Source: Candidatus Sysuiplasma jiujiangense
GTDB lineage: Archaea > Thermoplasmatota > Thermoplasmata > Sysuiplasmatales > Sysuiplasmataceae
NCBI GenBank assembly: GCA_019721075.1
Contig: JAHEAD010000009.1
Location: 29,888 to 93,887, forward strand
DNA: 64,000 nucleotides
Reading direction: 5' to 3'
The first letter of the stretch is position 1. Every line of letters begins with the position of its first letter. The position numbers were made by a program, and so were the translations under genes. Of the stretch, positions 3,281 to 27,748 are shown one piece after another. Under the pieces are notes generated by a model that did no database searches, was not told where the DNA came from, and was given only the letters and a program-made list of their open reading frames with translations.

Positions 3281-5206
3281 ATGAGTCTAGAAAGAATGCT
3301 TGAAGAAGTTAACGAAGCGGTAAAGAAAATTTTCCCTGCAGATATTGAGATTGCAAACATAGATTTCGAAGCTTCTGTGGTGGTAATATACATCAGGAAT
3401 TTCGAAAAATTTTCACAGAACACGGAACTGGTAAGACAGCTTGCCCAGTCTCTGAAGAGAAGAGTGGATATAAGGCCGGATCCATCATTGCTGGCAGACA
3501 AGGATGAGGTCGAAAAAAAGATCAGGTCAATTATACCGGACGAAGCACAGGTAATGGACATATTCTTTGACGATGAAACCGGCGAGGTTGTTATCGAGGC
3601 GATAAGCCCCGGTTCGGTGATAGGAAAGCAGGGGGCAGTTCTCAACGAGATCAAAAGAGAGACCGGCTGGGCGCCCAAGGTTGTTCGTGCTCCACCAATC
3701 GCATCCAAGACAATAAACGACATCAGGACATACATGAGGACGATATCAAACGAGCGGAAGGACTTTCTCAGGAAGGTGGGTAGACGACTTTACAGGGCCA
3801 GGATGGAAGGGGAAGGCTGGATACGCATAACATCCCTGGGAGGTTTCAGGGAGGTTGGAAGAAGCTCCACACTGCTCAGCACCAGGGAGAGCAAAGTTCT
3901 CATAGACTGCGGATTGGGAACATCGGATCAGGACAGCGGCGGGCCAAATGTTCCGGCGCCCTATCTCAGTGCACCTGAACTGCAGCCCATCGAATCGATT
4001 GATGCCGTCGTTATTACGCATGCTCACCTTGACCACACAGGCCTGCTGCCGGCGCTTTTCAAGTATGGTTATGACGGCCCTGTTTACTGCACCCCTCCCA
4101 CGCGCGATATGATGTCGATGCTCCAGCTTGATATGATCAAGGTTGCGTTCGGAGAGGGCAAGAAGCCTCCTTATGAATCATCCCATATCAGAAAGGAGGT
4201 CGCAAACTGCATAACACTGAAATACGGTGAAACTACAGACATAGCACCGGATATCAGGCTAACCTTCCAGAACGCGGGCCATATTCTAGGTTCTGCTGTA
4301 TGCCACTTCCACATAGGCGAAGGGCTGTACAACATAGCATTCAGCGGCGACATAAAGTACGAAAAGACATGGCTGTTCAATCCGGCAAACAACAAATTCC
4401 CAAGACTGGAGGCACTTGTTCTGGAGGCAACGTATGGCGGCTACAAGGACATACAGGCATCACGGCAGGAAGCTTCGATAGGTCTCAAGGAGATCGTAGA
4501 GAGGGTTCTCGGCAGGCAGGGAAAGGTCATAATTCCCGTTTTCGCAGTAGGCAGATCGCAGGAAATGATGCTAGTACTGGAGGAACTTATGAGAACCGGT
4601 CAGGTGCCGACCATTCCAGTCTGGCTCGACGGGATGATCTGGGAAGCTACAGCCATTCACACAGCCTATCCGGAATACCTTAACAGCCAGCTAAGAACGC
4701 AGATATTCCAGAATGGAGAGAATCCATTTCTCTCACCCATATTCCGAAGGGTCGACAGCAGTGAGACAAGAAACAGGATACTCAACGACACGGAACCCTG
4801 CATCGTCCTCGCCACATCGGGAATGATGAACGGCGGGCCTGTAATGGAGTACATGAAACACTGGGCAGACGATCAGAGAAATACGCTCATATTCGTCGGT
4901 TATCAGGCCGAGGGAACGCTTGGCAGAAAGATCCAGCGCGGTGCAAAGGAACTGCAGATGAGCGAGCATGGCCAGCAGATAGCGGTGCCCATAAACCTGA
5001 ATATCGAGACTGTAGACGGTTTCAGCGGCCATTCGGACAGAAGACAGCTGCTTAACTTTGTTTCCAGCATGGAGCCGAAGCCCAGCAGAATATTCCTTGG
5101 ACATGGCGAAGAGCACAAGTGCCTTGAGCTCGCGAGCACCATACACAAGAAATTCGGCATTGAAACTAAGGCGCCGATGAATCTGGAGACCGTCAGGCTC
5201 AGGTGA
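3281..5206 (+). CDS. fttA: aCPSF1/FttA: KH-domain beta-CASP metallo-beta-lactamase ribonuclease (transcription termination / RNA processing)
   Basis: N-terminal KH-like region, HAHLDHTG (HxHxDH), and C-terminal GFSGHSDRRQLLNFV beta-CASP motif C; 641 aa. Confidence 0.9.
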   Translation: MSLERMLEEVNEAVKKIFPADIEIANIDFEASVVVIYIRNFEKFSQNTELVRQLAQSLKRRVDIRPDPSLLADKDEVEKKIRSIIPDEAQVMDIFFDDETGEVVIEAISPGSVIGKQGAVLNEIKRETGWAPKVVRAPPIASKTINDIRTYMRTISNERKDFLRKVGRRLYRARMEGEGWIRITSLGGFREVGRSSTLLSTRESKVLIDCGLGTSDQDSGGPNVPAPYLSAPELQPIESIDAVVITHAHLDHTGLLPALFKYGYDGPVYCTPPTRDMMSMLQLDMIKVAFGEGKKPPYESSHIRKEVANCITLKYGETTDIAPDIRLTFQNAGHILGSAVCHFHIGEGLYNIAFSGDIKYEKTWLFNPANNKFPRLEALVLEATYGGYKDIQASRQEASIGLKEIVERVLGRQGKVIIPVFAVGRSQEMMLVLEELMRTGQVPTIPVWLDGMIWEATAIHTAYPEYLNSQLRTQIFQNGENPFLSPIFRRVDSSETRNRILNDTEPCIVLATSGMMNGGPVMEYMKHWADDQRNTLIFVGYQAEGTLGRKIQRGAKELQMSEHGQQIAVPINLNIETVDGFSGHSDRRQLLNFVSSMEPKPSRIFLGHGEEHKCLELASTIHKKFGIETKAPMNLETVRLR

Positions 5207-17585: not shown

Positions 17586-17686
17586 TGGCGCCGAGGGGGA
17601 GATTTGAACTCCCGAGGTGCAGTGCACCAGTGGCTTTCACGACTGGGTCTCGAGGCCACCGCTTTACCGGGCTGAGCTACCTCGGC
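17586..17686 (-). tRNA. tRNA-Ser(CGA) with a predicted 13-nt intron at the canonical 37/38 position, a long variable arm, and encoded CCA
   Basis: Hand fold: acceptor GCCGAGG/CCTCGGC, discriminator G, T-arm GGGAG-TTCAAAT-CTCCC, anticodon stem GTGGC/GCCAC, anticodon loop CTCGAGA, variable-arm hairpin GGTGC-ACT-GCACC, 3' CCA. Confidence 0.7.
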
Positions 17687-18869: not shown

Positions 18870-19143
18870 CGAAGGCACATGGATATCGGATTGCAGTCGT
18901 CATCGTAAAAACAGACAAAACCGCGGCAACCGCATCGTATGCCGTTTTTGTGAAAAGGATGCTGCAGTTTATGGAAACGTAAAGTCCGTGAATGGACCGG
19001 ATGCCTCATCTGAATGCTGTCAGAGAAAATTGTCTGTCCAGGGAGAGGTTTCGCTTATACCGCACAGCAAATGCAGATGCGGAAAGATTTTGGTAGCAGA
19101 TTTCAGATGAGGGAAAGGTTTATTAGGCACGCTACAATGTGGC

Positions 19144-19218
19144 ATGCCGATGATGGCATTCATAGCTGCATCGGCGTCTTTTATCCAGGATGATGCAGCC
19201 TTGCTTTTGCCGAACTGA
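19144..19218 (+). other. Candidate leader mini-ORF (MPMMAFIAASASFIQDDAALLLPN) ending in three consecutive Leu codons, upstream of leuA
   Basis: Seen directly: a 24-codon ORF ending ttg-ctt-ttg-ccg-aac-tga, a TATA-like TTTATTA ~20 nt upstream, and overlapping alternative hairpins. Functional interpretation is inference. Confidence 0.3.
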
Positions 19219-19313
19219 GATCGGTCCGCTGTTTTGCCCGGTCTCCATACATTCGTGGTGGTATTTTGAAATCAGAATATTCTTCAGTGGAAAAAGTCGT
19301 CGGTGTTCGAGGC

Positions 19314-20531
19314 ATGGACTCATATGCGAGAGCACCGCACAGGATAGTGAGTAACATCATTGAGCGGGATGCTGAATCCACAGCATATGTTAGAATACTC
19401 GATACTACTCTGAGGGATGGAGAACAGACACCCGGAATATCGCTCACTCCTGAGCAAAAACTGAAACTCGCTGGAATACTCAACGAGCTGGGCGTGGACA
19501 CAATCGAGGCAGGTTTTCCGGTCACCTCACGGGGGGAAGAGGAGGCTGTAAAGAAGATAGCCTCTTCTGCAACCGGTGCAAAGGTAATCTGTCTTGCGAG
19601 GGCGGAAAAGAGCGACATCGAGAAGGCTGCCGAATGCGGTGTTTCCAGTATTCACATATTTCTTGCCTCATCGGACATACACCTCGTGAACAAACTGAAA
19701 ATGACGCGCGGGGAGATGCTGCAGAAGGCTGCGGATGCCGTTGATTTTGCGGGAACACGCGGCCTTGAGGTTGAGTTTTCTGCAGAAGACAGCACCCGGA
19801 CTGAACCTGGTTTTCTCGCAGAGGTTGCCAGGACAGTGCATGACGCCGGGGCAACGGTATTCGACATTGCAGACACGGTAGGCGTTGCGACTCCCGAATT
19901 GATGAAGTGCCTGGTGAAATCGGTTTCCGGGACAGGCATAGAAGTCAGCGTGCACTGCCATAACGACTTCGGTCTGGCTGTTGCCAACAGCATAGCGGCA
20001 GTGGATGCGGGAGCGGCACAGGTCCATGCAACGCTCAACGGAATTGGGGAAAGGGCCGGAAACACTTCGCTTGAAGAGTTTGCAACGGCCGCAACATGGC
20101 TTTACGGCTACAGAACCAAAATCAGGTTTGAGATGATATCGCACGCATGCGAACAGGCTGCAAGCATTACCGGAATGCCAATACACGCAAACAAGCCAAT
20201 AGTAGGAAGCAACGCGTTCGGGCACAAGTCAGGGATTCACACTCACGGCATAATACGGAATCCGATTACATACGAGCCGTTTGATCCGCGTCTGGTCGGC
20301 AGAGGGCGATGGATGCAGGCTGGAAAGCACTCCGGTCGCCATGGTATAGAAGCGCAGCTAAAGGAACAGAACATAACGCTGGGAAGAGAGGAACTTGACA
20401 TGGTGGTAAGGATGGTAAAGCAGCGGGGAGATTCCGGAATGATCACGGCGGCAGACGAGCTCGCGAGACTGGCTGATATGGCAAGGAAATCGTCGCTGCA
20501 GCAGATCCCCGAGGCACGGAATGGTGAGTGA
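19314..20531 (+). CDS. leuA: 2-isopropylmalate synthase / (R)-citramalate synthase family (LeuA/CimA)
   Basis: ILDTTLRDGEQTPG, HCHNDFGLAVANS and the TIM-barrel DRE-TIM family. Confidence 0.85.
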   Translation: MDSYARAPHRIVSNIIERDAESTAYVRILDTTLRDGEQTPGISLTPEQKLKLAGILNELGVDTIEAGFPVTSRGEEEAVKKIASSATGAKVICLARAEKSDIEKAAECGVSSIHIFLASSDIHLVNKLKMTRGEMLQKAADAVDFAGTRGLEVEFSAEDSTRTEPGFLAEVARTVHDAGATVFDIADTVGVATPELMKCLVKSVSGTGIEVSVHCHNDFGLAVANSIAAVDAGAAQVHATLNGIGERAGNTSLEEFATAATWLYGYRTKIRFEMISHACEQAASITGMPIHANKPIVGSNAFGHKSGIHTHGIIRNPITYEPFDPRLVGRGRWMQAGKHSGRHGIEAQLKEQNITLGREELDMVVRMVKQRGDSGMITAADELARLADMARKSSLQQIPEARNGE

Positions 20532-21845
20532 ATGGGCTCTACCACGGTGGAAAAGATCGTGTCAAGGGCATGCGGGAAGGCTGTAAGTGCGGGGGAGAAG
20601 CTGGAATCCCTTCCTGTGGACAGGTTATATCTGAACGAAGTTGTTGCGCCACCAGCAATTATCAACTTCCAGAATGACTTCAGCAAGGTATTCAGGGACA
20701 CGCAATCGCCGAAGCAGGTGTTTGACAGATCCAGAGTAACATTTTTTGCAGATCACAGCGTGCCATCATGCTCCGAGAGTGTTAGCAGGGGGATTGCCCT
20801 GATGAAGACATTTTCGAATGAAACGGGCGTCAGAATGTACAAGGAAGGGGACGGCATAGAACATACTGTGGCTGGAGAAGAAGGTTCCGTGCTTCCCGGG
20901 GAAATAGTCGTGGCCACAGACTCGCACACATGCACGCAGGGTGCCCTGGGTGCACTTGCATTCGGAATAGGAGCAACGGAGGCTGAATATGCGATGGCGA
21001 ATGGTGAAATCTACTCATTCTCCGTTCCTGAAACGATTCGCTTTTCAATCGGAGGCGAGCTGTCCGATGGTGTTTTTGCAAAGGATCTGATTTTACACAT
21101 ACTGGGAATGATGGGACAGGACGGCTGTTCAAGAAGGATCGCCGAATTCGATGGCCGGTGCATCAGCTCAATGGACATGGACGGAAGATTTACGATGTGC
21201 AATCTCTCTGTGGAAATGGGTGCCAGAAGCGCCATCATCAATCCTGATGACTCCACTTCGGCATATATACGCGAAGCATTCGCCAATTCAGGAAAGAGTT
21301 TTGACGGCAGTGCACTAGATAAAGCGCGGCGAAGCGATTCGGATGCAGTGTTCTCGTCCGTGTTTGAAGTCGATGCCGCAGATGTCGAACCAACTGTGGC
21401 ACTGCCGCATTCGCCTGCCAATGCGAAGCCGGTGAGCGAAGTTGATGATGAAATTGACACCGTCTTCATAGGGTCATGCGCAAATGCCAGGAAATCCGAT
21501 CTTGAAATAGCTGCCAGGATACTAGGCGGAAGAAGGATCAGCCGAAGGGTTAACCTTATCGTAATCCCGGCGAGCAGGAGGATCTACAACTGGGCTGCCT
21601 CTAACGGCATTCTTTCCCGGCTGGCAGAGGCAGGGGCGAATATAGAATCATCTAACTGCGGTCCCTGTTTCGGAAAGCACATGGGTGTCCTGGGGCCAGG
21701 TCAGCGTTGCGTGAGCACGAGTAACAGGAATTACAGGGGCAGAATGGGATCTCCGGATGCAATGATTTACCTGGCATCTCCTGCAGTGGCCGCTGCCTGC
21801 GCAATCGAAGGAAAAATCGCAGATCCGAGGAAGTATCTGAGGTGA
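20532..21845 (+). CDS. leuC: 3-isopropylmalate dehydratase (or homoaconitase) large subunit
   Basis: Aconitase-family Cys ligands (DSHT, GSCANAR, CGPCFG). Confidence 0.9.
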
Positions 21846-21849
21846 GGAG

Positions 21850-22374
21850 ATGAAGATAGCAGGGAATGTCAGGAGAAAATTCGGGGATGACATAAACACC
21901 GACTACATCATACCGGCTCATCTTCTCCAGGAAAGCTGGGATCCGCATTTTTTTGCGGCTCATGCCTTTGAAAAATTCGATCCGCTTTTCAGGGAAAAAT
22001 GTCAGGCGGGCGACAGCAACATTATTGTGGCCGGGCGCAACTTCGGCTGCGGAAGTTCGCGTGAGCAGGCCGTCTATGCCCTGAAATACAACGGCGTCGT
22101 GGCAGTCGTGGCGGAATCGTTTCCCGATATCTTCTACCGGAATGCGCTGAACAACGGCCTCCTTCCTGTCAGGACACCACGCGCCGGGGGTATTCAGGAG
22201 GGTGATTCTGTAACGATAGACGTTTCTGCCGGCACAATGATTGTCAATGAGACCGGCAGCGCCATCATGCTTCCGGATCTTGATGATTACGCCGGTGTCA
22301 TGTCGAAAGGCGGAATGCTCGGACTTGCACAGGAGCGGTTACGTGAGAGGCTTATGCGTGCAGGAGGGGATTAG
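21850..22374 (+). CDS. leuD: 3-isopropylmalate dehydratase small subunit
   Basis: Aconitase swivel domain: [23 protein letters not shown]. Confidence 0.9.
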
Positions 22375-22396
22375 CCTGGGTTTCAGAATCGCCGTA

Positions 22397-23401
22397 ATGG
22401 AGGGGGACGGTGTCGGAAAGGAGGTGGTATCCGCGGCTATTGAGGTGATTTCTGCGGTCGAAAGGAAATTTGACATCGGTTTCTCGTTTGAGAACGCTCC
22501 GGCCGGCGATGAGCTGCTCAGAAGAGATGGCAGCCCCTTCCCGCGATCATCGTTCAACGCAATAGAGGAAGCAGACGCGACACTGAAAGGTCCGCTAGGA
22601 TGGAGTGCAAAGGACGTAATCGTCAGGCTCAGGCGTGATCTTGACCTTTTTGCCAACATACGGCCGGCCAGGACACTATATGGTGCCGTAAGTCCGGCGA
22701 AACCCATAGACCTTGTCATTGTCAGGGAAAATACCGAAGACCTCTACAGTGAAATTGAATTCGATCTTGGAGACGGCGCGATAGCAATGAAGGTCATCAC
22801 AAGGCAGGCTACTGCAAGAATAGCAGAATATGCGGCAAGGGTTGCGATGAACAGAAATAAGTCAATGAAGGTTACATGCGTTCACAAATCGAATGTTCTG
22901 CAAAAGACCGACGGCTTGTTTTCAAATATATCGCGCGATGTGATTTCAAATTACCCTGCCATTCGTTTCGAAGAAATGCTTGTGGACGCCGCCGCCATGA
23001 ACCTGATACGCAATCCGCAGGATTTCGATGTTATTCTGACATCCAACCTATATGGAGACATACTTTCTGACGAAGCTGCGCAGATCGCCGGCGGGATAGG
23101 TTTCGCACCCTCAGCCAACATCGGCCGGGATCATGCCATATTTGAACCTGTGCACGGGGCGGCATTTGACATAGCGGGCGGCGGTGCGGCCAATCCGGCG
23201 GGCATGATACTTTCTGCCGCAATGATGCTCCGTTACCTCGGAGAGGGACACGGCAGCAATGAGTGCATGATTGCCGCTGCAGCTGTTGAGAGGGCGGTGG
23301 AAGATGCACTTTCGAGGGGGGTGGTGACTGCAGATTCAGGCGGAACGGCCAGCACTTCAGATTTCGGCAGATACGTCTCCAGAAGCATACTGGCTCAATG
23401 A
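22397..23401 (+). CDS. leuB: 3-isopropylmalate dehydrogenase (or isocitrate/homoisocitrate DH family)
   Basis: IAVMEGDGVGKEV N-terminus, NLYGDILSDEAAQIAGGIG and HGAAFDIAG motifs. Confidence 0.85.
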   Translation: MEGDGVGKEVVSAAIEVISAVERKFDIGFSFENAPAGDELLRRDGSPFPRSSFNAIEEADATLKGPLGWSAKDVIVRLRRDLDLFANIRPARTLYGAVSPAKPIDLVIVRENTEDLYSEIEFDLGDGAIAMKVITRQATARIAEYAARVAMNRNKSMKVTCVHKSNVLQKTDGLFSNISRDVISNYPAIRFEEMLVDAAAMNLIRNPQDFDVILTSNLYGDILSDEAAQIAGGIGFAPSANIGRDHAIFEPVHGAAFDIAGGGAANPAGMILSAAMMLRYLGEGHGSNECMIAAAAVERAVEDALSRGVVTADSGGTASTSDFGRYVSRSILAQ

Positions 23402-26253: not shown

Positions 26254-26739
26254 ATGTCGCCAAAAAGTCAGCCAGCAGGAAAAGTCGGCGAAATAAGGTG
26301 CTGGGCAATATGCCATTCTACAGAAGATGAGCATAAAGTCGAAATGGCGCTCCGAAATGTGGTTGGATCTGAAGCCGCGATTGAGCATGTTCGTACTGAA
26401 ACGCACTTCGGGCAGCCGATGTCAATTATCTCATGCAGATTAAGCGGCGGAAAGAAATTTTCCGAAATTTTGAGCAGGTTCTCCGCTGAAGATATTGAAA
26501 CACTCCTAGGGCAGCTCGAGGAAAGGCTTGACAGTGACAATACATTTCACATCAGGCTTGATAAACAGCAGACATATGAAGGCGAGCCGAAACTGTCATG
26601 CAGCTTTGATCCAGTGACGCGCAAGAAGAGGGACAGCATAGATCTCGATATACACTTCACCACGTATCCGTCCAGGAGAGAAAATGCAATCAGGTTCATA
26701 GAATCGCTGTTGAGAAAAAATGATTTGGAGCAGGGGTAG
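26254..26739 (+). CDS. Hypothetical RNA-binding-like protein (COG1325-like, predicted exosome-associated)
   Basis: 161-aa ORF 6 nt after the previous gene. Its stop codon lies inside the first 10 nt of tRNA-Leu. Confidence 0.45.
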   Translation: MSPKSQPAGKVGEIRCWAICHSTEDEHKVEMALRNVVGSEAAIEHVRTETHFGQPMSIISCRLSGGKKFSEILSRFSAEDIETLLGQLEERLDSDNTFHIRLDKQQTYEGEPKLSCSFDPVTRKKRDSIDLDIHFTTYPSRRENAIRFIESLLRKNDLEQG

Positions 26740-26814
26740 CCCAGCTTGGCCAAAGGCGCAAGGCTTAGGACCTTGTCCAGCAGTGGTTCGCCGGTTCAAA
26801 TCCGGCCCCCTGCA
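26730..26814 (+). tRNA. tRNA-Leu(UAG), class II with long variable arm; CCA not encoded
   Basis: Hand fold: acceptor GCAGGGG/CCCCTGC, discriminator A, anticodon stem CAAGG/CCTTG, loop CTTAGGA, 14-nt variable arm, T-arm GCCGG-TTCAAAT-CCGGC. Confidence 0.85.
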
Positions 26815-27748
26815 CTGGGACGATTGTTCGACCTGTTTAGAAGCGGTTAATCCCTCACTGATATTTGGATCATCATTGGCTTTTTTGAACTGATGAACGA
26901 ACTGGAGTTGCATCAGGATACCGGTTCTACGTAATCATGATGCAAGGAAGAGTGTGACGGAGAGATTAAAGGCTCTTCAGGACAGTCGAATGACGACAGT
27001 CGAACTCAAGATGCCCGTCATTGACGGAATACGCACAAAGGATGTGAACAAAGTGGCACCGCTTAAGGGTTCATGGCGACATCATCGATCGCAAAACCGC
27101 TCTTCCTCGAAGGACTGGTGAAGCTGCCCGGTGCAAAGCTGACATTCGGCGGCGCGGTCAGCAAGGCAGGGCTGCGGAGGTTCGTGATCTCGATATGGTC
27201 GACCGTTGAATTGAAGAACTGCCCCGAGGATACGTTGCATTATCGTAGCGTTCGCAGGCTTGTAGAAGAAGCAGTTGATGGCACATTCACCAGCTACTCC
27301 AGCGTAACGCACGGCAGCAGGGATTAGTTTCAGATAGCACTGAGATACGGCCAAAAAACGAGTCCAGTGCTCGTGCCTGTGTATCAGTCGTATGCTCTCG
27401 AAATCATTGAACTTGATGTCACAACCTGAAAGCAGAGCCTGTGCTATCTGTCCCTGTTGATCAATACTCCTGATCTTCTCCGGACAGCTTACCGATGGTT
27501 CCGATTGCCCTGGAGGTATCCGGGTCCATCGTTGACAGGCACTCTTAGATGAAAACCGCGAGCATCATCAGCAGTTCTTTGAATGCGCGCAAATAGCGTT
27601 TAGTGAGATTTCAACTATCACAACAGAACAACGCATTTTATCTTCCTTCCTCACCATTACCTGCGCGATCGGTTTTGCGACGGATTCACGGGCGCATCAC
27701 GAAGAGATGTGCCTGGTTTCGGCTCAAGCGCAACTGAAAGCAGTTAAA

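Follow-up and report, generated by a model that had tools for sequence, protein, structure and literature searches.

Does an archaeon sense leucine through a ribosome that translates a short open reading frame (ORF) at the head of its leucine operon? Textbooks present leader-peptide attenuation as a consequence of the coupling between transcription and translation in Bacteria, and Archaea couple both processes too. The question is raised by a 64,000-nucleotide stretch of Candidatus Sysuiplasma jiujiangense (contig JAHEAD010000009.1, positions 29,888 to 93,887), hereafter the window, in which an inspection of the letters and their ORFs (the sequence-only reading) had proposed a leucine leader peptide with alternative hairpins upstream of leuA. 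By comparing this region with its relatives, we found a conserved promoter, a conserved leader ORF with a run of Leu codons dominated by a rare codon, a conserved hairpin at the stop codon (hairpin C) and a fixed geometry connecting them. The element is a strong candidate, judged from this pattern of conservation, for a ribosome-mediated leucine sensor in Archaea. We consider it moderately probable that the region is the 5' leader of a leu operon acting as such a sensor in an uncultured Thermoplasmata lineage.

Within the window alone, the evidence is at chance level. The leader (19140-19320) folds with a z-score of -1.08, and 30 of 200 shuffled sequences fold as well. The window holds 857 ATG mini-ORFs of 10–40 codons, among which 14 (with 11 distinct stops) contain three consecutive Leu codons (LLL), about one per 6 kb. 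Some LLL mini-ORF also lies within 500 nt upstream at 9 of 80 distant archaeal leuA loci, which are relatives of 47–56% identity among the matches listed by a pattern scan of genome contigs with a generic motif. The examined mini-ORFs of this kind were inside the ilvN coding sequence or were not positioned like a leaderless leader beside a TATA-like box, and nothing comparable to the leader was found upstream of the 80 loci. The finding therefore stands or falls on the comparison with relatives. Conservation in relatives had been set beforehand as a refutation test, with coincidence named as the alternative: a Leu-rich mini-ORF is kept in 10 further loci, with covariation, fixed length and fixed spacing. 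An accidental LLL mini-ORF with hairpins in an intergenic spacer, which the single-window numbers would have allowed, is thereby effectively refuted, and we regard it as extremely improbable.

The relatives were gathered by a protein search among 5.8 billion proteins, which gave only twelve close clusters (P0001–P0012, 57–99% identity), all without the domain PF08502 discussed below. The DNA of ten of these clusters provided the loci L081/82, L083/84, L085/86, L087, L088, L089, L090, L091, L092, L096 and a partial locus, L093. The comparison set is the window plus 10 further complete loci (n = 11) from an uncultured Thermoplasmata clade, with LeuA-type proteins 57–84% identical. The leader regions are strongly conserved, though the synthase proteins are only about 60% identical. 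A covariance model built on a four-sequence subgroup found the element exactly once in every locus, and nowhere else in the window. The conserved Leu-run/stop block gave no match in two metagenome pattern scans, and a scan of about 270 kb for a TATA box followed after 22–25 nt by an ATG mini-ORF detected amino-acid runs in these leaders only. As far as seen, the leader element appears to be confined to a narrow uncultured clade.

An archaeal-type promoter heads the leader (19111..19126, +), recognisable by its consensus and its conservation. The TTTATTA at 19119-19125, already pointed out in the sequence-only reading, belongs to a TATA 8-mer, TTTATTAG (19119-19126), preceded by the purine-rich GGGAAAGG (19111-19118), which resembles a B recognition element (BRE). 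The box is common to all 11 loci, with the variants TTTAAGAA, TTTAATAA, TTTAAAAA, TTTATTAA, TATATTAG, CTTATCTA and CTTATGTA and a purine run ahead of each. The end of the 8-mer and a conserved ATG, at 19150 in the window, are separated by 23 nt in eight loci and by 24 nt in three. The centre of an archaeal TATA box usually lies at about -26/-27 from the transcription start, which predicts a start at about 19148–19150. Because the box ends just 23–24 nt before the conserved ATG, the leader ORF is probably leaderless. Several other genes in the window have a TATA-like box starting 28–34 nt ahead of their ATG, suggesting that the organism uses leaderless mRNAs. No further promoter-like element was found between hairpin C and the synthase gene.

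Between the TATA box and the ATG, a conserved block (19127..19149, +) includes TGGCA at 19140-19144, that is, at -10 to -6. The sequence TG(G/T/C)CA or TCGCA occupies the same offset in every locus, and L087 (1197-1221) has a perfect dyad, TGACA-N5-TGTCA, between its TATA box and its leader ATG. A transcription factor may bind this block as an operator that overlaps the start site, which would add a second control layer. The same block also supports a different explanation of the whole region, namely a structured cis-regulatory RNA or DNA element that is bound by a protein or a small molecule, with the ORF being incidental. We consider this explanation unlikely, as we do the particular binders that it might involve, a transcription factor on the TGGCA/dyad sequence or an RNA-binding regulator on hairpin C or on the YTGCTYTTG block within the leader. 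What it has to accommodate is the ORF itself.

The leader ORF (uORF1, an upstream ORF) extends from ATG 19150 to TGA 19216-19218 (19150..19218, +) and comprises 22 codons plus TGA, encoding MMAFIAASASFIQDDAALLLPN. It lies between the BRE/TATA sequence (19111-19126) and the start of the synthase gene at 19266, an arrangement common to the 11 loci. The sequence-only reading had placed the ORF at 19144..19218. Its frame and stop codon are real, but the conserved start is ATG 19150. The upstream ATG 19144, from which reading to the same stop gives MPMMAFIAASASFIQDDAALLLPN, was rejected, as it is present in the window and L081 only and lies 18 nt after the TATA box, too near to be transcribed at the usual archaeal TATA spacing. 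In 11 of 11 loci, the ORF has exactly 22 codons from ATG to TGA, and the stop is always TGA. The corresponding peptides are MKAFGAAATPLLSDEAALLLPN (L081), MIEHRTALTVLASPDAALLLLN (L083), MNKRRAALPVLNSPDAALLLLN (L085), MKERRTALPVFASRRAALLLLN (L090), MNNCTTGSAVFVSHDAALLLLN (L091), MKATADQMDVFSSLSAALLLLN (L087), MEQRMLQSDLLEKTAAGMLLLA (L088), MKQSCDSNKILALQSSALLLSA (L089), MKQSTARRNFLAQSASALLLLS (L092) and MKESCDCNKILAIQLSALLLLA (L096).

The frame is preserved over a sequence that is otherwise free to change. Among ten loci, nucleotides 4–45 of the ORF have a mean identity of 41% (17–38% between the major groups, near-random), and nucleotides 46–69 have 82%. Stops occur in none of the ten loci in frame 0, in nine in frame +1 and in seven in frame +2. 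When nucleotides 4–45 are shuffled, the frame stays open in only 36–59% of the cases per sequence. The ATG-to-TGA length is constant across loci, while the distance from the stop codon to the downstream Shine-Dalgarno (SD) sequence varies from 38 to 48 nt. A bound element with an incidental ORF leaves unexplained why the ATG, the frame, the 22-codon length (11/11) and the TGA were all kept while codons 2–15 became near-random. Such conservation of length and frame, together with a conserved C-terminal segment, A-A/S-L-L-L-(L), could also be expected if the ORF encoded a functional micropeptide of 22 residues, hydrophobic at its C-terminus, that works in trans or on the enzyme itself and is no regulatory leader. 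This possibility seems to us very unlikely, since 16 of the 22 residues are under essentially no constraint and vary from charged to hydrophobic, and the five or six conserved residues are too short for a membrane helix. Rare codons would also be unexpected if the peptide had to be made efficiently.

Among RNA families, the Rfam covariance models gave no match in the region at the gathering threshold. At E ≤ 10, there were two chance-level C/D-box matches only, with 17.7 and 14.5 bits against cut-offs of 48 and 40. A C/D-box small RNA or a k-turn, suggested by GATGATG...CTGA in the window, was rejected because the boxes are not conserved and these scores are far under the threshold. A 'leuA-Halobacteria' RNA motif is reported in the literature; no Rfam model matched the region.

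The conserved end of the ORF is a run of Leu codons. The TTG CTT TTG at 19201..19209 (+), on which the sequence-only reading was built, corresponds to codons 18–20 of the conserved ORF, and all loci have three or four Leu codons here. LLL or LLLL falls within codons 18–21 in 11 of 11 loci, the run of L088 being codons 19–21. TTG is invariant at codon 20, and the other run positions switch from TTG/CTG to CTT/CTC and back among the loci. TTG is a rare codon, accounting for 6% of the Leu codons in 24 genes of the window and for 0–9% in neighbouring genes of eight relatives. In the leader runs, it makes up 26 of the 40 Leu codons, which share ancestry and are not independent events. Rare-codon runs are a classical means of making a leader peptide sensitive to tRNA charging, and the enrichment of TTG thus fits tRNA sensing. 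Neither this enrichment nor the switching between TTG/CTG and CTT/CTC at the run positions is explained by a bound element. About 3.3 kb past the end of the leu operon lies a tRNA-Leu gene (26730-26815, +) with the anticodon TAG, which reads codons of the CUA/CUG type and not the TTG dominating the leaders.

Hairpin C follows immediately. All three hairpins of the sequence-only reading (A, B and C) are present in the window at the positions it gave. The arms of hairpin C, GAGATCGG (19217-24) and CCGGTCTC (19238-45), contain one G-U pair, and the hairpin (19217..19245, +) begins inside the stop codon and is present in every predicted fold of the window leader. This register relative to the stop codon, also part of the initial proposal, is kept in the relatives: the hairpin begins 1–5 nt after the U of the stop codon in 10 of 11 folded loci (the ten complete loci and the partial L093). 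The lowest-energy fold of L088 differs, with a GGAC.../...GUCC stem in the hairpin C register as an alternative, and the stem in L096 is visible by eye. Compared with dinucleotide shuffles, the hairpin C region has a negative z-score in 10 of 10 loci, with a mean of -2.6. The TTGCTTTTG block is named beside hairpin C as conserved leader sequence.

Stem positions 5–15 of hairpin C each show three to five different standard pair types. Because these pair types come from the minimum-free-energy fold of each sequence, they are circular as a test of covariation, and the pairs were hence counted on a structure-blind MAFFT alignment. In this alignment, the 3' arm of the window and of L081 is out of register by one column, and group 2 (the window being in group 1) could not be placed, so the formal count was confined to a four-sequence subgroup. 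Of the hairpin C cells in this subgroup, 92.9% are paired, compared with 39–48% for a slid partner, and in two pairs both members change. Such covariation would also suit the stem of a protein- or ligand-binding element. Outside the coding block, however, the conserved unpaired nucleotides that a ligand pocket typically has are missing, and the bound-element explanation likewise has no Rfam match to draw on.

The other two hairpins fared differently. Hairpin A (GCCGATG/CATCGGC in the window) and hairpin B had been proposed as mutually exclusive partners of a switch. This was rejected: none of the relatives, L081 and L083 included, has the 3' arm of hairpin A (CATCGGC), and the 5' arm of this hairpin straddles the predicted transcription start. 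Hairpin B, formed by GCTGCATC (19165-72) and GATGCAGC (19192-99), is a perfect 8-bp inverted repeat (19165..19199, +) whose 3' strand runs into the Leu codons. A comparable hairpin inside the ORF is predicted in most relatives with differing registers, and the fold of the ORF has a mean z-score of -1.75, with three loci near 0. Support for hairpin B across the loci is moderate.

Downstream of hairpin C, the spacer CATACATTCGT (19246..19256, +), with a CAT(Y)NTTTC-like consensus, separates the hairpin from the ribosome-binding site. The site itself consists of the SD-like GGTGGT (19257-62), ATT and the start codon TTG (19266-68), together 19257..19268 (+). Across the loci, the spacer after hairpin C measures 10–19 nt, and GGTGGT or GGTGAT ahead of TTG or GTG is invariant in the alignment. 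Within the window's group, the synthase keeps the N-terminus M-x-S-E-Y-S-(S/T)-x-E with codons that vary synonymously (TCA GAA TAT TCT versus AGT GAA TAC TCA, for example), which indicates that the N-terminal extension is translated. The synthase gene most likely starts at TTG 19266; the ATG at 19314, assumed as the start in the sequence-only reading, was rejected in its favour because the extension upstream of it is conserved and preceded by GGTGGT. In the window and L081, the SD sequence, the TTG start and the first codons (GGTATTTTGAAATCAGAATATTC, 19257-19285) can form an AU-rich local hairpin around the start, and in the other group-1 loci GTATT/AATAC can pair similarly around the start codon. 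By these predictions, such a hairpin could tune initiation.

In L087, L088, L089, L092 and L096, the start codon after hairpin C opens a separate ORF of 36–40 codons, the stop of which overlaps or abuts the ATG of the synthase (ATGA). This second ORF lies at about 1343-1456 in L087, 4894-5004 in L088, about 4882-5004 in L089 and about 1382-1513 in L096, and its counterpart in the window is the extension fused in frame at 19266-19313. A programmed frameshift joining the leader to the synthase was considered, as the -1 frame is open in the window, and rejected because the relative frame of the ORFs differs between loci. The ATGA arrangement is typical of termination-reinitiation, and the downstream start is always a non-ATG codon with its SD sequence 10–19 nt after the foot of the hairpin. 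These features could indicate a device for translational coupling or re-initiation that does not sense leucine, in which the leaderless mini-ORF recruits ribosomes and hairpin C brings the stop codon beside the SD sequence and the weak start, where terminating ribosomes or subunits would initiate again. The Leu run would then have some other role, as a feature of the peptide or of the RNA. We find this device quite unlikely. It leaves unexplained the invariant Leu run, the rare codon and the link to a leu operon lacking an allosteric domain, and the stop-to-SD distance of 38–48 nt is long for re-initiation.

The enzyme encoded downstream adds a further reason to expect regulation by leucine. 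The first gene of the operon (19266..20531, +) encodes a 2-isopropylmalate synthase (IPMS)-type protein of 421 residues, with an HMGL-like TIM barrel (PF00682, 1.2e-81) and a post-HMGL subdomain (PF22617, HCS_D2, 8.6e-24). Its NCBIfam scores are higher for the IPMS subfamilies (462 bits) than for homocitrate synthase (335–342 bits) and citramalate synthase (182 bits), and its best match in the Protein Data Bank is an IPMS (3rmj). The domain LeuA_dimer (PF08502), the C-terminal allosteric domain for leucine feedback, is absent from the window synthase and from P0001–P0012. The next-best homologues (P0013 onward) mostly carry PF08502, and the nearest homologues outside the clade are full-length LeuA proteins of Nitrososphaerota with the allosteric domain and 55–57% identity. 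The synthase has lost the allosteric, leucine-binding domain still present in its nearest relatives, and the resulting regulatory gap would be filled by a leucine sensor acting in cis. The earlier assignment of the downstream gene as leuA holds insofar as the protein is of the IPMS type, with the corrected start and without the allosteric domain, and it scores under every NCBIfam equivalog and subfamily cut-off. Judged by sequence, leuA is a reasonable name for it, with substrate specificity read from these similarities.

How might such a leader sense leucine? As the fixed TATA-to-ATG spacing suggests, transcription would start at or within about 2 nt of ATG 19150, and the mRNA would begin with the leaderless 22-codon ORF. 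Codons 18–21 of this ORF would be read as Leu, mostly from the rare TTG, and its stop codon would abut hairpin C, about 10–19 nt upstream of the SD sequence and the weak TTG/GTG start. When charged tRNA-Leu is scarce, the ribosome would stall on the Leu run with its leading edge at the foot of hairpin C only, and the hairpin would stay folded. When leucine is plentiful, the ribosome would proceed to the stop codon and unwind the entire 5' arm, and the pyrimidine-rich 3' arm and spacer would be briefly exposed. Across loci, the 3' arm plus spacer comprises 21–30 nt with 48–73% pyrimidine.

This sequence of events differs from the one first proposed, in which a ribosome stalled on the Leu codons would occlude the 5' arm of hairpin C. 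A ribosome protects about 15 nt downstream of the first base of the P site, as established for bacteria and assumed here for the archaeal leader. By this standard footprint, a ribosome with the last Leu codon in its A site would reach the lowest 0–4 of the 8 stem positions in the window and up to about 6 in relatives, and it would cover the whole 5' arm with the stop codon in the A site. The leader thus resembles segment 2 of the trp leader more than an 'occluded terminator'. As for the output, we would speculatively prefer that the exposed RNA favours premature termination, by FttA/aCPSF1 or at a U-rich stretch, or otherwise lowers downstream expression, whereas the folded hairpin C with a parked ribosome would permit expression of the operon. 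Translational control and stabilisation of the mRNA by a ribosome parked at its 5' end are other possible outputs. A role of FttA in policing the coupling of transcription and translation is only hypothesised (PMC11616081).

Several results weigh against the leader being a leucine sensor of this kind. RNAalifold detected no conserved pair of mutually exclusive structures (antiterminator and terminator) across the loci, and folds in which the ribosome-covered bases were masked gave no common alternative pairing of the hairpin C 3' arm. Predicted accessibility of the SD sequence and of the start codon was unchanged by the ribosome position in the masked folds. No canonical archaeal oligo-T terminator common to all lineages lies between hairpin C and the gene. 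Duplex energies between the Leu run and the downstream initiation region were no better than those of 150 control windows per locus (mean rank 0.58). Nucleotide-level conservation of the block GCAGCCTTGCTTTTG(Y)(Y)GAACTGA within group 1 extends to synonymous positions, which could reflect a constraint from RNA or protein binding rather than codon identity, as a bound element would predict. With its equivalog scores under the cut-offs, the synthase could be a homocitrate or citramalate synthase. Every compared sequence is metagenomic, and our literature search found no precedent for hairpin-dependent or FttA-dependent attenuation in archaea.

The same analyses disposed of several specific switches. 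No alternative pairing between the 3' arm of hairpin C and the sequence that follows it is common to the loci, and a switch that sequesters the SD sequence was rejected because the ribosome masks had no effect on the predicted accessibility of the SD sequence or the start. Pairing of the Leu run with the SD region was also rejected: isolated complementarity in L087 and group 2 was insignificant overall, and in group 1 the pairing with the initiation region was no better than that of shuffled tracts. The sequence-only reading had itself remarked that no T-tract directly follows hairpin C; this is correct for the window, where the spacer comes next, and the nearest T-run (T4–T7) lies about 20 nt downstream of hairpin C, at the start codon, in group 1 only. 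Its comparison with an attenuator survives in part: a promoter-proximal Leu mini-ORF and a hairpin do precede a leuA-type operon, and no conserved terminator or antiterminator was found.

In its overall design, the leader has much in common with the bacterial leader attenuators of the Yanofsky model, such as leu, his, phe, thr and trp of E. coli and Salmonella. In both, a short ORF heads a biosynthetic operon, a run of codons for the end product stands near the 3' end of the ORF and is followed by one or two codons and the stop, as in hisL and pheL, a rare codon occurs in the run, a hairpin adjoins the stop codon, and conservation of the peptide is limited to the run. The leu leader of E. coli uses the rare CUA. 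In contrast to the bacterial systems, the host here is archaeal, the ORF is apparently leaderless, there is neither a terminator hairpin with a U-tract nor a conserved antiterminator among the structures found, and no sequence or structure matches the Rfam leader families. Hairpin-dependent intrinsic terminators are not known to be used by archaeal RNA polymerase.

In design, the nearest analogues are the mycobacterial polycysteine ORFs and the actinobacterial LEU element. In mycobacteria, the Cys-codon tract of leaderless small ORFs (sORFs) pairs with the SD region of the gene that follows (Canestrari et al., bioRxiv 10.1101/834739). Like the archaeal leader, which is probably leaderless as well, these sORFs are the first cistron of a cognate operon, with a codon run at the 3' end and no classical terminator, and control of the downstream gene by ribosome stalling is a proposal in both cases. 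Unlike them, the archaeal leader shows no pairing between the run and the initiation region above controls, the predicted accessibility of its SD sequence is independent of the ribosome, and its conserved hairpin stands apart, after the ORF and ahead of the SD sequence. The LEU element is a pseudoknot in which a base stem pairs Leu codons with the SD sequence of leuA, and mutation data spoke against control by a leader peptide (Seliverstov et al. 2005, PMC1262725). It also lies upstream of leuA and combines a candidate leader ORF with a Leu run, a conserved RNA structure and no obvious terminator; the archaeal leader has no such base stem and no sequence relation to it and belongs to a different domain of life. 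That a Leu-codon ORF was present there, yet the mutation data opposed classical attenuation (PMC1262725), is a precedent in favour of a bound element here. In Corynebacterium, as described in the passages that cite the work (PMC13158618, PMC11857589), a leader peptide translated from a start that is leaderless or lacks a ribosome-binding site controls the branched-chain operon ilvBNC. This system shares with ours the type of operon and the type of leader start, predicted in our case, and differs in its three-hairpin terminator/antiterminator, of which none was found here.

The sequence-only reading had stated that leader-peptide attenuation is not established in archaea, and our literature search agrees, as it found no amino-acid-sensing leader peptide reported for archaea. 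Attenuation is unmentioned in a review devoted to archaeal transcription-translation coupling, and a haloarchaeal ribosome-profiling study reported uORFs and no attenuation.

The remaining features of the locus are as follows. The synthase gene is followed by genes for an aconitase-type large subunit (20532-21845, +), an aconitase-type small subunit (21850-22374, +) and an isopropylmalate/homoisocitrate-type dehydrogenase (22382-23401, +), the last gene of the four-gene cluster, all assigned by matches to domain or family profiles. The gene order is identical across all relatives. That the host is an archaeon, as initially assumed, is supported by the thermosome, Nre, an archaeal-type AdoMet synthetase, SecY with the Sec61 plug, geranylgeranyl reductase and FttA/aCPSF1 in the window. 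The best named homologues of the thermosome are from metagenome-assembled genomes (MAGs), 'Thermoplasmata archaeon' MAGs (83% identity) and a Methanomassiliicoccales MAG (66%). The gene of FttA/aCPSF1, the archaeal transcription termination factor, is at 3281-5206 (+) and encodes the domains KH_TffA, metallo-beta-lactamase, Beta-Casp and RMMBL. At 17589-17686 (-), Rfam identifies a tRNA of 98 nt (45.2 bits) missed by ARAGORN, probably an intron-containing archaeal tRNA.

Upstream of the leader, a small hairpin (ACAAAACCG/CGTTTTTGT, 18915-18951) with a terminal T5 run lies about 50–80 nt past the stop codon of pheA and resembles a terminator of this gene, which would mean that the organism has ordinary oligo-T signals. 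Directly upstream of the BRE/TATA sequence, in the spacer stretch 18870-19118, is a 16-nt inverted repeat (19004-19019/19097-19112), 88% complementary with its copies 77 nt apart. The entire pheA-leu spacer folds with a z-score of -2.67. It measures about 396 nt in the window and 211 nt in the closest relative, L081, which is without the repeat; the 16-nt repeat therefore looks like an insertion specific to the window. In a related lineage (L094 4940-6499 and L095 1-838; thermosome 71% identical), pheA and the whole leu operon are absent from the syntenic site, the thermosome-Nre-GNAT-AIRC-SAMP2 and apgM-DUF6015-NAD kinase neighbourhood is retained, and a resolvase/recombinase gene is nearby.

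In its fullest form, the proposal would make this leader the first archaeal amino-acid-sensing leader peptide, in which a leaderless ORF reads the charging of tRNA-Leu through TTG and the state of the hairpin gates a leu operon whose synthase lacks allostery, maybe through access of FttA or of a U-tract mechanism to the pyrimidine-rich stretch. We regard this form as possible and somewhat doubtful. If true, its output mechanism would differ from the terminator hairpins of bacteria. The leader offers a concrete sequence for asking whether ribosomes in archaea act in cis as regulators of RNA polymerase or of downstream initiation, and it bears on whether archaeal leaderless mRNAs can carry sensory uORFs and on whether FttA is a regulated terminator, not one for quality control only, as has been hypothesised (PMC11616081). 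The order of TATA box, 23–24 nt, ATG, short ORF with a rare-codon run and hairpin at the stop codon provides a search template for other archaeal operons. For the lineage itself, the locus suggests an evolutionary trade, a sensor acquired in cis by the operon against the allosteric leucine domain lost from the synthase.

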